Origin: a virus
DNA: 64,000 nucleotides
Strand: one strand, 5' to 3'
Virus genome (UHGV): UHGV-1364441
Positions 18,221 through 62,758 of this stretch are shown piece by piece; within the stretch, counting starts at the first letter, position 1, and each line of letters starts with the position of its first letter. A program made the translations under genes and the position numbers. The notes under the pieces are model-generated. The model had not been told where the DNA came from and made no database searches. It was given only the letters and a program-made list of their open reading frames with translations.

Positions 18221-18240
18221 AATTTTAATTTTCTAACACA
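18221..18240. promoter_or_regulatory. operator-like motif (TGTTAGAAAATT family) overlapping promoter of 18254 gene
   Basis: aattttaattttctaacaca; same motif recurs in at least ten intergenic sites. Confidence 0.5.
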
Positions 18241-18253
18241 AATCATTACGGTT

Positions 18254-18646
18254 ATGGCGTATCGGATCTTTGTTTCGTATAAAAATGGCGCGAAAAGCCA
18301 CTCCCTGAACACAACGAGCCGCTTTCTTGTTGAGGCGCAACTGGCATCAATTCTTGCCGAAAGTGAGATACTCTCGCTCGCTGAACGGATCGTTATCCAG
18401 TTTTCTGGTAGAGATATACTCAATGTCCCCGCCCTCACCCCGGCCTCCGAAGTTATGGAATCAATTAAATGGCCTGTATGCGGATGTCCTGCCAGGGTTG
18501 AAGAGCCGGTAACAGCAACGCTCTACATGCCGAAAGCAGTAAGAGATTGGCTTGCTGTGATTGGCAACGGGAAAGTCAGTGCTGGACTGCGAAAGTTAAT
18601 TGAAATGGCAGATATTCCAGAGTTAAAAAACGCATGGCGACAATGA
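18254..18646 (+). CDS. hypothetical protein, operator-preceded
   Basis: ORF from MAYRIFVSY (ORF track starts 18212); operator motif immediately upstream. Confidence 0.45.
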   Translation: MAYRIFVSYKNGAKSHSLNTTSRFLVEAQLASILAESEILSLAERIVIQFSGRDILNVPALTPASEVMESIKWPVCGCPARVEEPVTATLYMPKAVRDWLAVIGNGKVSAGLRKLIEMADIPELKNAWRQ

Positions 18647-18665
18647 GTAAACAGGGGGGGGCAAA

Positions 18666-19124
18666 ATGAGTCACGCGAATCCATCAAAAACACAATATCG
18701 CTTAATGCTGGCGATCGCGTCAGCTATACCAACCAGCCTGAATCCCCCTGCTGGCTATCCCGCTGTTGTTGATGATTGTTTTCAGTATTACGGTGAAGAC
18801 ATTCTGGGACAGTCGAAAGCACTAAAACAGTTGTGCAAAGCCGGGATTCTTCACTGCATAGGCGATCCGGATGATTTTGTTGTCATGCTGGCAGATCGTG
18901 ACTCTTTTCTGCTGTCCTGGAAAGCCGGGGCGCGCGAAGCGCGTTTGGGGAATGGCATTGGCTACATAGACTATAGCGATTGCCCGCTGGCATTTGCTGG
19001 TGGATATATGCATTGGCATGAGCGAAATAGAGGCCGTCAGCGTCAGTATCGCTTGAGTGACTTTAACGTCTGTCACGGTTTCGAAGAAGCTGACAGCCAG
19101 GATATCTGGCTTCAGGAGCCGTGA
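18666..19124 (+). CDS. hypothetical protein
   Basis: 152-aa ORF following 18254 gene. Confidence 0.45.
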   Translation: MSHANPSKTQYRLMLAIASAIPTSLNPPAGYPAVVDDCFQYYGEDILGQSKALKQLCKAGILHCIGDPDDFVVMLADRDSFLLSWKAGAREARLGNGIGYIDYSDCPLAFAGGYMHWHERNRGRQRQYRLSDFNVCHGFEEADSQDIWLQEP

Positions 19125-19444
19125 TTACCCTTCCCTTCCCAAATCTCCCTATTCCTTTGGTTATTCAGTGCGTTTCGTTGGTTGCATTCATCGATCGTGC
19201 TGAATAACTGTTCAGTGTATGTTGGATACTTGTTTAACAGCACTGGCGTGTCCTCTGGCACCAGACAAGGGGAATAATCAATCAGATTTGCCTGCGGCTT
19301 GCTGGTGGCTTCTACGGTAATTTTCACTGGCACGCTGGTTGATGGCTTTTGCCCGTTCCCGCTGCATCCTGATAACGTCATCAGGCACACGCACATCGTT
19401 AATCCCAGCACGGCGTAACGCAGTTTCAAGACGAGTGATTTCAT
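19112..19444 (-). CDS. Rz1-like o-spanin lipoprotein (overlapped with Rz-like gene)
   Basis: Signal peptide with lipobox LSGC, Pro-rich mature part, starts inside the Rz-like gene in another frame. Confidence 0.55.
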   Translation of the reverse strand: MKSLVLKLRYAVLGLTMCVCLMTLSGCSGNGQKPSTSVPVKITVEATSKPQANLIDYSPCLVPEDTPVLLNKYPTYTEQLFSTIDECNQRNALNNQRNREIWEGKGNHGS

Positions 19445-19751
19445 TCTGGCTTTCCTCTCGTTGTTTGATTAGGTTGGCATTCAGTTCTGCTGTTTTGCGC
19501 TGGTACTCCTTTTCCAGTGCTTTAATTCTTTCGTTTTCGGTCAGCATGGCTGAGCGAGCGTTCTCACTTAACTGTAATGCGGTAGAAAGCGTGTTGTTCG
19601 TGCTTTCCAGTTGTGATTTTGAGTCTTCAAGCGATCGGACATACCTGATGTGTTCGATAACTGCCGTCGTTGTTCGGTAAATTCCAGAAATGGCTAAAAG
19701 CGCAATTACAATCAAAATTATCTTTTTCAAAACCATCCTCTCCAGGTTCAT
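19278..19751 (-). CDS. Rz-like i-spanin (lysis)
   Basis: N-terminal membrane anchor (KKIILIVIALLAISGIY), long coiled-coil region, overlapping +1-frame lipoprotein gene at its 3' end. Confidence 0.6.
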   Translation of the reverse strand: MNLERMVLKKIILIVIALLAISGIYRTTTAVIEHIRYVRSLEDSKSQLESTNNTLSTALQLSENARSAMLTENERIKALEKEYQRKTAELNANLIKQREESQNEITRLETALRRAGINDVRVPDDVIRMQRERAKAINQRASENYRRSHQQAAGKSD

Positions 19752-19806
19752 TTTTGGTGTTAAACATGTACCAATTTACATCCTTTTGTGTGCCTAAGTG
19801 GTGTTT

Positions 19807-20610
19807 CTATGGTTCCTTTTTGGTGTTCTTTTGGAGCGCATCGATAACGCCTTGTGGCATGATTAAACTGATTGCCGGACTCATTACTGCATCATCCAGT
19901 AGAGAACCAGTTAACGTGATGGCGACAGCGTTCTCTAAACCTTTGGTTGCCTGAGTGGTTGACGTTTTAATGCGACCTGTAAGGGCTACGACACCCTCAC
20001 TTGCTGAGTTAATTTCGGAGAGTAAAACTTCGGCGGCTGTCACTGCTTCCCGTAAAGCATCAATTTCATCCTGAGTAATGTCCGGAGCCTGTGTTGCCCC
20101 TCCACCAGCCTGTCCACCATCACTATCACCACCGGCACTCCCGGCAGCTTCAATTTTTGCGTTTATGGCGTTCATGGCGGTATTCAGATCGTCAAGTTTC
20201 AGCGCCGCCAATGCGTCCGTTAATGATTGCGGTATGGAAACATTCCCCATCCCCTCTACCAGGGCGAACGCTGGCGCGGGGATCAGTTCATTACCTTTTG
20301 CGTGGCACTCCCAGCCAATCTTCATCTGTAACAACTCTGATGGCGTGGTGTATGGGGAAAGAGAGTCAGCCAGTGATGAAGAAGACTTGCTGGCCTCATT
20401 GAGCTGTTCGGAAAATCCAAGCAATTGAGTCGTCCAGGCCGACACTGAATCAGGATAGGTTTTATCAGGGTGAACCATTTCCTGTATTGCGCTCGCGAGT
20501 GACGAGGCTTTTGAAGAAGCCGCCCGGCTTATGGTTATTGATTCCGGTGTGGAGGCACCAGCACCAGACAGAATTTGGAAGGCTTTAACTTCACCTATTG
20601 AATCAAGCAT
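19807..20610 (-). CDS. hypothetical protein (Ser/Ala/Gly-rich)
   Basis: 267-aa ORF translationally coupled to upstream PAAR-like gene. Confidence 0.45.
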   Translation of the reverse strand: MLDSIGEVKAFQILSGAGASTPESITISRAASSKASSLASAIQEMVHPDKTYPDSVSAWTTQLLGFSEQLNEASKSSSSLADSLSPYTTPSELLQMKIGWECHAKGNELIPAPAFALVEGMGNVSIPQSLTDALAALKLDDLNTAMNAINAKIEAAGSAGGDSDGGQAGGGATQAPDITQDEIDALREAVTAAEVLLSEINSASEGVVALTGRIKTSTTQATKGLENAVAITLTGSLLDDAVMSPAISLIMPQGVIDALQKNTKKEP

Positions 20611-61281: not shown

Positions 61282-61357
61282 GGTAAGGGTACTTCGTAGG
61301 GATTCGAACCCTCTGCCAAGCACGGCGATCTCCGACGTCGCAAAATACCCTTACCTG
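61282..61357 (-). ncRNA. tRNA-like element or tRNA pseudogene (T-arm-like hairpin enclosed by a long stem)
   Basis: AGGG-TTCGAAT-CCCT T-arm-like hairpin inside a 10-bp stem GGTAAGGGTA/TACCCTTACC (extendable to ~15 bp with one bulge); no cloverleaf or CCA. Confidence 0.35.
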
Positions 61358-61363
61358 TTGTGT

Positions 61364-61439
61364 TGGTGCCGATTAACGGACTCGAACCGCTGACATCCTG
61401 CTTACAAGGCAGGCGCTCTACCAACTGAGCTAAACCGGC
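61364..61439 (-). tRNA. tRNA-Thr (anticodon UGU)
   Basis: 76 nt, GCCGGTTTAGCTCAGTTGGTAGAGC, anticodon stem-loop CCTGC-CTTGTAA-GCAGG, T-arm GCGGTTCGAGTCCGT, CCA encoded. Confidence 0.85.
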
Positions 61440-61441
61440 AT

Positions 61442-61518
61442 TGGCGATGGTGGGTGGATTCGAACCACCGACCGACAGCTTAGAAGGCTGCTGCTCTATC
61501 CTACTGAGCTACACCATC
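61442..61518 (-). tRNA. tRNA-Arg (anticodon UCU)
   Basis: 77 nt, GATGGTGTAGCTCAGTAGGATAGAGC, anticodon loop CTTCTAA, T-arm GGTGGTTCGAATCCACC, discriminator G, CCA. Confidence 0.85.
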
Positions 61519-62587
61519 ACTTGCCGGGTACGTCTCCGGCGAGGGCTTCCACCTCCGTATGCTTTTCGGCGCACCGCGCCCTGGCTGCAATTCAGTAACA
61601 GGGGATGCATAACCCTGGCTTCCAGCGTGATAAGCGCCTTCAGCATGACGGGATATACCCGTAACCAACAAACTTTCCCATATACCATCAAACAATGGCT
61701 GTTACGCGGGAGGGACGTAACAGGTAAGGGCGCTGACCAGAAAGACCTGACCCTTCTCATTCATCTGGTTAATCACACCAGCGCCCTTGCCTGTTATGCC
61801 TCCCCGTTCCCTAATACACAGACGGGGTCACTCTGCGGTCGATTTTTTGACGGGGGACGACTCATACCCCGTGGCGTCTGGCTTCTTAGGCCGCTACCAT
61901 CATCAGATCATCGTTTGCATTTACTTTAATGGTCGGTTTCTAAACCGCCGCAAAGCCGCTAACCATGACGAAAACCCTAAAAAAGCCCACCCGAAGATGG
62001 GCAAATACGCTACATCTCACACAAGAAAGAAGCCGACTGCCTGAGCTGGATTCACTTTCAAATGCCCGCAGAAAGGGAACACAAGTCGGCTTCTTTCTTG
62101 ATGCGGCACTCTCTCCGCCCGTCACCGCTCTGTCTCGGTTGTCGCGTTTGCCACGCCAGCCATAACGAGGTTTAAAGTCTTTGCACGTTTCCATCACTCG
62201 ACTGCCGTCTGTGGCTGTTCGTTGCAGCGGGGGTGCCTCCCCCTGGGGATATCCCCGGCCTTACCCCATTCTTTCAAGACACAATGCAAGGCCGCATCCG
62301 CATAGGTGCATTACCGCAACATTAAGGAGACTTAGGGCAAAAGGTAATCGCCACAAAAAAATCCCTATGCCTCCTTAATGTTGAGGATGTGCATTGATGA
62401 TGATTCGATGCGGCGAGTCCCGTTACTCTCTGCCGGACCATCATCAATGAACATCTTAAAAAGACCTTCCGTGGCTCAACATGTCTTGTCGTTTACTCCG
62501 TAAAGTGCTCTCTCTGAAACCACTTTACGCACTAAACCTGCTGAACTTTGGCTTGCTCGGTGCCAAAGCAAATCCCTGTATGCATGT

Positions 62588-62600
62588 AATTTTCTAACAC
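62588..62600. promoter_or_regulatory. operator-like motif (reverse orientation)
   Basis: aattttctaacac. Confidence 0.5.
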
Positions 62601-62740
62601 TTTAATTTGTTATTTGCTGGTGGGCGAACAACAACCAATAAGTGACTATCAAGCCCAGCAAGCGAAATGTGGCAACGCTCCACCAGCAAGGAAAATTCTA
62701 AGTTAAGTTACTCTCACAATCAATATGTTCGTTTGGTGAA

Positions 62741-62758
62741 ATTAGATTTCTAACACAT
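62741..62758. promoter_or_regulatory. operator-like motif (reverse orientation) abutting stop of 62758 gene
   Basis: aattagatttctaacaca. Confidence 0.5.

Follow-up and report, generated by a model that had tools for sequence, protein, structure and literature searches.

The C1 repressor of the plasmid prophage P1 binds 22 dispersed asymmetric operators of 17 bp and controls RepL and Lpa (PMC8546580). The operators of this P1/P7 C1 network (ImmC) are named Op1-Op99 and follow the consensus ATTGCTCTAATAAATTT. The P1 repressor is in turn modulated by Lxc, Coi and Ant. How is such a network laid out in a relative that lacks this consensus? We address the question for UHGV virus genome UHGV-1364441, a 64,000-nucleotide stretch of viral DNA (called here the window, meaning the whole stretch analysed). 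By Megablast it belongs to the D6 group within the P1-like plasmid prophages of Escherichia coli: across its aligned parts the window is 92% identical to phage D6 (MF356679), and many E. coli plasmids of ~90 kb are 92-98% identical to it. Judged by this similarity, the window is a P1-family, D6-like phage-plasmid of E. coli. Such phage-plasmids are common in E. coli and Salmonella, and hundreds of plasmid records match the window. Gene order is alike in D6 and the window, and orf1 of D6 is annotated as prophage repressor. The D6 GenBank record carries no annotated operators and our literature search turned up nothing relevant on the motif described below or on D6 operators; an earlier description in the D6 literature is possible. 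We propose, with a probability of about 0.85, that a class of asymmetric sites dispersed over the window serves as operators for a C1-family master repressor that the element itself encodes, the product of 54469..55506, with a D6-type specificity.

An asymmetric motif confined to intergenic DNA

A recurring asymmetric motif had been picked out at ten loci by an earlier, sequence-only reading of the window, and all ten are present where that reading had placed them. With at most one mismatch, the head of the motif, TGTTAGAAAA, occurs 16 times in the window, compared with 5.8 +/- 2.2 times in dinucleotide shuffles, none of 100 of which reaches 16. Twelve of the 16 matches stand apart as a class of their own and share a longer asymmetric consensus, ttaTGTTAGAAAAtTAAtT; the information content of the site spans ~17-20 bp and is not palindromic. 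A position weight matrix (PWM) built from the 12 sites scores them at 24.7-30.5 bits, the runner-up in 64 kb is the weak partner within one inverted pair (37602) at 10.7 bits, and simulated sequence yields ~0.3 matches of at least 14 bits. In these sites the T of TGTTAGA falls at 28136, 36965, 41345, 53040, 54441 and 58872 on the plus strand and at 18238, 28165, 37631, 41374, 62599 and 62755 on the minus strand. The remaining four one-mismatch matches (24414, 35352, 44843 and 55867) lack the extended consensus; by the list of open reading frames (ORFs), 24414, 44843 and 55867 fall within long ORFs and 35352 in the intergenic gap 35156-35381. An unbiased count of 8-mers spread across intergenic regions ranks GTTAGAAA, TGTTAGAA and TTAGAAAA first. 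The motif is thus real and the class of sites is confirmed.

Sites are single or arranged as exact 30-bp inverted pairs, of which there are four (Table 1), with one half weak at 37602 and at 58901. The pair upstream of ref combines a strong half at 37615-37631 (-, 30.0 bits) with a weak half at 37602-37618 (+, 10.7 bits), and that upstream of lpa a strong half at 58872-58888 (+, TATTAGAAAA) with a weak half at 58885-58901 (-, CGTTAGATGA). A 13th copy is truncated by the window edge; its D6 counterpart, site 10331(-), reads ATATGTTAGAAAACTAATTT and scores 31.7 bits.

In a greedy ORF model that leaves ~92% of the window coding, all 12 sites are intergenic (P ~1e-10 for 9 independent loci and 8% non-coding DNA). 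The earlier claim of intergenic placement therefore holds, and the scan refutes an equal density in coding DNA. Site 18238 falls inside a longest-ORF call (18212..18646), yet lies 5' of the start at 18254 that matches D6 orf52. Proximity to gene starts, put earlier at within about 80 bp, does not apply to 62599 and 62755, which lie ~1.1-1.2 kb upstream of the minus-strand tRNA operon.

The motif is also conserved in place. At orthologous positions in D6, 119 of 120 bases of the heads are identical, while tails and flanks diverge. The comparison was extended to 31 IMG/VR loci (C1 72-100% identical) and four others (C1 45-53%), in which sites keep fixed offsets from the c1 start, at about -1430 (dUTPase), about -102 (inverted), -28 (c1) and about +4405 (lpa), and recur 5' of DUF968 and around pmgS too. 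The 53040-type site is found in 31 of 34 related loci, at -1425 to -1453 or, in L007-L009, at -1541 to -1598. The c1 operator, at -28 or, in L007-L009, at offset 1 to -33, occurs in 33 of these 34 loci, and the sequence of the one locus without it, L015, begins 6 nt before c1. A site near +4405 is present in 24 of 34 loci, and the relatives whose lpa upstream regions were aligned retain it. Even where the repressors have diverged strongly the pairs persist: L042 (C1 48% identical) keeps the 30-bp spacing at lpa, and L009 (C1 45% identical) keeps the pair upstream of the DUF968 gene.

What is conserved upstream of c1 itself? Alignment of 22 distinct c1 upstream regions leaves only four conserved islands, TTTTCTAA, TTTACT, TAnATT and TGTTAGAAAA, which therefore define a conserved c1 promoter with a strong operator spanning about +10 to +27 relative to the predicted start of the c1 transcript and a second site ~75 bp upstream. 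This second site, at about -102 and inverted, is degenerate in the window's lineage and has the full TGTTAGAAAA in many relatives; its core TTTTCTAA is invariant in the 22 distinct relatives. Relatives whose C1 is 50-53% identical retain both promoter hexamers and the distance between them. Farther upstream, a weak site, AGTTAGAAAT, at 54264-54273 (+) adjoins the upstream side of a promoter directed at cre, TTGGCA-16-TATAAT, the strongest predicted promoter of the c1/cre region; the arrangement recalls P1 Oc1e, which 'may control cra and cre'.

The repressor gene and its putative regulon

The gene 54469..55506 had been named as one candidate for the repressor, and homology bears this out. Its 345-aa product is 20% identical to P1 C1 over 239 aa (BLASTP, E 6e-8), its homologues, the closest of them 96% identical, carry PF27008 (Phage_P7_repressor_C1), and the D6 annotation agrees. 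The score against NCBIfam phage_rep_C1 (NF041318; E 3.8e-5) is far under the equivalog cut-off, so the protein is a distant family member and not an equivalog. It is 62 residues longer than P1 C1 by virtue of a C-terminal extension, helical in the predicted model. The family is small, with 59 clusters at 50% identity among 1.8 billion representatives, and no homologue was found in GTDB representative genomes. PF27008 genes accompany the sites in every relative examined. On these similarities 54469..55506 is the C1 homologue of the element.

The sites were then compared with the 20 C1 operators annotated in the P1 reference record (Table 1). They front the same operons as those of P1, and the comparison supports a regulon that mirrors the P1 C1 regulon; the sequence-only reading had likened the dispersed layout to the P1 C1 network. 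The Obanab operon of P1 comprises a dicF-like region, tRNAs and tciABC; the counterpart of the repL operator lies beyond the window, and D6 has a site there, at 22467. Several of the promoter assignments first made for the sites had to be corrected. Site 36965, for example, lies downstream of ref and upstream of the C4-like RNA and is not part of the ref promoter.

The operator sequences are another matter. The P1 consensus has no match in the window at three mismatches or fewer, which rules out P1/P7 immunity, and the D6-type PWM has no strong match in P1; the distinct specificity proposed earlier stands. In the best PWM-to-PWM register, the P1 consensus faces the reverse complement AATTTTCTAACATAATA with a common core TCTAA and a score of about 0. 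A register of the kind 'same tail, different head', P1 ATTGCTCT|AATAAATTT with TGTTAGAA|AATTAATTT, scores lower and was dropped. In the TCTAA register, orientation and the -35-abutting position at the c4 and lpa promoters equal those of P1.

How would the network operate? We infer binding, repression, a monomer stoichiometry and a Tus-like mode of binding, as follows. In the plasmid-prophage state the repressor would occupy each asymmetric ~17 bp site (head TGTTAGAAAA, AT-rich tail), probably as a monomer whose predicted Tus-like two-domain fold would clamp one site in the interdomain cleft; two molecules would bind a 30-bp inverted pair. Repression would silence lpa, probably the key target, and hence all late genes. 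It would also silence the C4 RNA immunity locus, ref, the hrdC-methylases, dUTPase-isaA, the DUF968 operon, the tRNA-tciAB operon and orf52/53. Finally, the repressor would limit its own synthesis, as the c1 promoter is flanked by two sites (54351..54367 and 54441), of which 54441..54457 is the putative autoregulatory one. With an operator head unlike that of P1, the element is expected to be heteroimmune to P1 and P7 as far as C1 is concerned.

Some observations weigh against assigning the sites to C1. Most of the sigma-70 promoters predicted near the sites are weak, and no single geometry holds for all of them: only those of c1, kept in relatives, and c4 are reasonably convincing, with the rest weak or ambiguous, so that any mode of repression assigned to one promoter is tentative and details of geometry are provisional. 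At hrdC, DUF968 and orf88 the site coincides in part with the core promoter, and at c1 and orf52 it is found in the 5' leader; promoter geometry is similarly varied among P1 operators. One D6-like plasmid was reported to have no counterpart of the P1 co-repressor Lxc (PMC6799933), so that the circuit of P1 is not reproduced in full. Co-variation between operator head and repressor was sought among the relatives and none was found, the head being TGTTAGAAAA down to 45% C1 identity, and the TTAGA core persists in a relative with 30%. The co-variation test thus speaks neither for nor against C1 specifically, as opposed to another conserved factor, and the link to C1 rests on the analogy with P1, on position and on the co-occurrence with PF27008.

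Might the sites serve a different regulator of the element? A second repressor, or an early/middle activator such as the products of orf52/orf53, would suit the several single sites centred ~48-60 bp upstream of predicted starts, as for class I activators, and also a head that does not co-vary with C1 divergence. P1 Oc4, Odmt and Olpa, however, likewise lie just upstream of or over the -35, no other conserved DNA-binding regulator was found beside the sites, the sites go with PF27008 genes, and the regulon mirrors the experimentally defined one of P1 C1 with the autoregulatory c1 sites included, which together make such a regulator unlikely. A host factor was considered because the head contains TGTTA. 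ArcA half-sites contain this pentamer; the motif could also be an IHF or Fis site or part of the promoter (a -10/-35 variant), as TAACAT and TATGTT in or beside the site resemble -10 hexamers and the halves of the 30-bp pairs are spaced like -35 and -10. The conserved G6 and A7-A10 and the inverted 30-bp geometry, as against the direct repeats of ArcA, make this explanation very improbable, as do the would-be -10 T that is C in 5 of 12 sites, an orientation relative to the regulated gene that is not constant, and the absence of the motif from P1 despite the same host and homologous promoters.

Least credible of all is a mark of Lpa-dependent late promoters, even though a short conserved element at many promoters of a P1-like phage brings the P1 late promoters to mind. 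These carry AACAAGTGACTT at -22 together with a -10 hexamer and serve late operons for morphogenesis and lysis, and boxes of the P1 type (AAGTNACTT-N4-TAnnnT), which differ in sequence from the operator motif, are found in the window at other positions (34243 and 62720-62695), so this identity was rejected. The motif precedes lpa, c1, the C4 RNA and ref, none of them late genes, and the long late structural, tail and baseplate blocks (e.g. 28182-31494 and 31572-34186) have no site at their upstream end. Only one site, 18238 beside the capsid gene, adjoins a structural gene, and we attribute it to orf52, which is divergent.

If the sites are indeed C1 operators, knowledge of their sequence and regulon would serve annotation of the lysis-lysogeny switch, prediction of immunity groups, and the design of reporters and induction-proof derivatives. 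Since repressors with as little as 45% identity go with the same operator head, a wide clade may share immunity at the C1 level, and heteroimmunity may be set elsewhere, e.g. at the C4/antirepressor locus.

Gene map and features near the sites

The gene map (Table 1) draws on the D6 annotation, Pfam and ARAGORN. The operator at 18222..18238 ends 15 nt 5' of the orf52 ATG, the pair at 28136..28165 is 13 nt upstream of the operon ATG at 28122 (-), the predicted -35 of the c4 promoter is TTGAGT (36957-36952, minus strand), and 58 nt separate the operator at 53040 from the start (52981, -) of the orf117-dUTPase-isaA operon downstream of it.

Table 1. Predicted operators, promoters and genes of the window, with the P1 operator to which each site would correspond
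Feature	Positions	Strand	Score or source	P1 counterpart
Capsid gene	16398..18095	-	D6 annotation	
Predicted single operator, gap between capsid gene and orf52 (18254..18646, +); orf52/53	18222..18238	-	30.5 bits; D6 54217 keeps it	none
rdgC/hrdC and two methylases	25655..28122	-	D6 annotation	
30-bp inverted pair, predicted bivalent operator of the rdgC/hrdC-methylase operon	28136..28165	both	halves 25-27 bits	Odmt (upstream of uhr-hrdC-dmt)
C4-like antisense RNA, immunity I locus	36778..36856	-	Rfam RF01695, 39.7 bits (gathering score 45), E 6.5e-6	
Predicted single operator, upstream of C4-like RNA, abuts predicted -35	36965..36981	+	29.8 bits, promoter scan	Oc4
ref	36975..37553	-	D6 annotation	
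30-bp inverted pair between ref (ATG 37553, -) and divergent orf88 operon (37715, +)	37602..37631	both		Oref
30-bp inverted pair, 42 nt 5' of DUF968/pdcB-like gene	41345..41374	both	27.4 and 29.5 bits	
DUF968/pdcB-like gene	41417..42412	+	Pfam DUF968	
Predicted single operator of dUTPase-isaA operon, just after cre stop codon	53040..53056	+	30.5 bits	Ossb (ssb-isaA), rough
cre, end of dUTPase operon	53055..54083	-	gene map	
Degenerate site ATTTAGAAAA, upstream of c1	54351..54367	-	c1 upstream alignment, site list	
Predicted c1 promoter	54396..54424	+	-35 TTTACT 54396-54401, 17-bp spacer, -10 TAGATT 54419-54424	
Predicted c1 operator, 11 nt 5' of c1 start	54441..54457	+	30.5 bits	Oc1
c1-type repressor gene, 345 aa	54469..55506	+	D6 orf1 'prophage repressor, similar to P1 C1'	
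pacB, pacA and lpa	55532..58793	-	gene map	
lpa, late-promoter activator	58401..58793	-	Pfam BPP1_LPA, E 1.4e-56	
30-bp pair upstream of lpa	58872..58901	both	28.8 bits	Olpa
Four tRNAs	60324-61518	-	ARAGORN	
Predicted operator 5' of ~1.07-kb leader and tRNA-tciAB operon (minus strand)	62583..62599	-	24.7 bits	Obanab (with 62755)
Predicted operator across pmgS stop codon, upstream of late-promoter box 62720-62695 and operator 62599	62739..62755	-	29.0 bits	Obanab (with 62599)
pmgS	62758..63978	-	gene map	
Tail of predicted 13th operator, upstream of pmgS ATG 63978	63989..64000	-	GAAAACTAATTT = D6 site 10331(-)	OpmgRb (OpmgR)

The immunity I region differs from that of D6 in lacking icd and the antirepressor 3' of the C4-like RNA. 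Where D6 (73182-75178) has this pair, the window (35382..36700) has small ORFs, two plus-strand genes of unknown function (phrog_12786 and phrog_13864) and a terminator hairpin at 36434-36462.

Two leaders hold hairpins that pair the Shine-Dalgarno sequence. That of lpa, at 58797-58822 (-), is CCCCTCGG...CCTGGGGG and is kept, with one compensatory pair, in relatives with 45-53% C1 identity; that before orf117 of the dUTPase operon, at 52986-53005 (-), is CCCTC...GAGGG. Both may add translational control on top of C1.

Between operator 62599 and the first tRNA extends a stretch of ~1.07 kb (61520-62590, -) that has few ORFs, a high GC content and many hairpins. Its identity to D6 is 97%, while the tails of the adjacent operators diverge, and a search of Rfam matched no family; P1 has its 'dicF-like region' at this relative position. 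The stretch may be an unannotated structured RNA or leader. The tRNA genes downstream (60324-61518) are on the minus strand by ARAGORN and Rfam, co-directional with tciA/B and the operators, whereas the D6 GenBank record (7145-7850) places those of D6 on the plus strand. Four are present in the window (Met, Ser, Thr, Arg) and three in the D6 record (Ser, Thr, Asn). Of the two late-promoter boxes of P1 type, that at 34243-34265 (+) reads AACAAGTGACTT-N4-TAAACT and that at 62695-62720 (-) reads GAGTAACTT-AACT-TAGAAT. As the latter lies between operators 62755 and 62599, transcription of the tRNA operon may be controlled by C1 and depend on Lpa as well.

Near lpa, the product of 59294..59869 (-), 191 aa long, has a domain like that of Tad2 (Thoeris anti-defence 2; Pfam E 1.5e-9); Tad2-like genes occur in the same neighbourhood of relatives, once fused to dUTPase. 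At the other end of the window, (G/A)GTGTAAAAA repeats at 9589-10900, and also at 1145 and 1250 (20 matches, 6.5 expected), flank a repA-like gene (9830..10618) and are probably plasmid replication iterons.

A predicted Tus-like fold and the likeness to P1 C1

How might a repressor recognise so asymmetric a site? Tus, the replication terminator protein of E. coli that forms a fork barrier with its Ter sites, is a monomer that clamps an asymmetric site, and its fold is not known to have relatives. An AlphaFold2 model of the product of 54469..55506 (11-sequence alignment, mean pLDDT 85.3, pTM 0.57) was compared with the PDB by Foldseek, and the only significant matches are four chains of E. coli Tus bound to Ter (1ECR and 4XR0-2; E 1.1e-7 to 4.4e-6, probability 1.00, ~300 aligned columns), the next match having E 0.08. 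At the sequence level, hhalign of C1 89-200 with Tus 160-272 gives P 0.0013 (across runs, probability 9-18% and P 0.001-0.003) and HMMER gives E 0.0017 for the repressor/Tus segment. Pfam Ter (PF05472) matches 1 of 57 family members (E 0.015) and does not match the window repressor. Speaking against the link are a TM-score of the model with Tus of only 0.37-0.42, the low sequence-level support implied by an hhalign probability of at most 18%, a search of BFVD with the repressor model that gave no match, and a resemblance between operator and Ter (AGNATGTTGTAACTAA) that is not above chance, its gapped PWM score being reached by 87 of 400 shuffles. On the last ground TATGTT...ACTAA, common to operator and Ter and striking by eye, was dropped. 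We give even odds to the idea that the C1 repressors of P1-family phage-plasmids (PF27008, P1 C1 included) are structural relatives of Tus.

Such kinship would have several consequences. Clamping by a Tus-like monomer would explain the asymmetry of the operators, providing a structural account of the asymmetric, monomer-type operators of P1 as well, and it fits the autoregulatory c1 site. C1-operator complexes might be orientation-dependent roadblocks to RNA polymerase or helicases. Tus would share ancestry with the repressor of enterobacterial plasmid prophages, a lead on its origin; it occurs in few taxa and has been proposed to derive from plasmid systems (PMC10331603). A literature search found no paper linking C1 and Tus and no report of the fold of P1 C1.

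The repressor is close to Tus in size, is predicted to have a two-domain alpha/beta fold like that of Tus and, like Tus, is met with in Enterobacterales and their plasmids. Tus is autorepressed via a Ter site at the promoter of its gene (PMC10331603), and the c1 site, between the predicted promoter and the c1 start codon, is placed like Ter at the tus promoter. Unlike Tus, C1 would act at many sites that control transcription, and a role in fork arrest is only conjectural. The closest likeness is to P1. Both elements have more than 10 asymmetric sites of ~17 bp, dispersed and fronting early and regulatory operons, in a mix of single sites and inverted overlapping pairs, and both have a homologous repressor gene near lox/cre and pacAB. 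They differ in the span of the pairs, 30 bp in the window and 28 bp in P1, and in the c1 site, which is 3' of the predicted promoter in the window and over the -35 of the promoter in P1.

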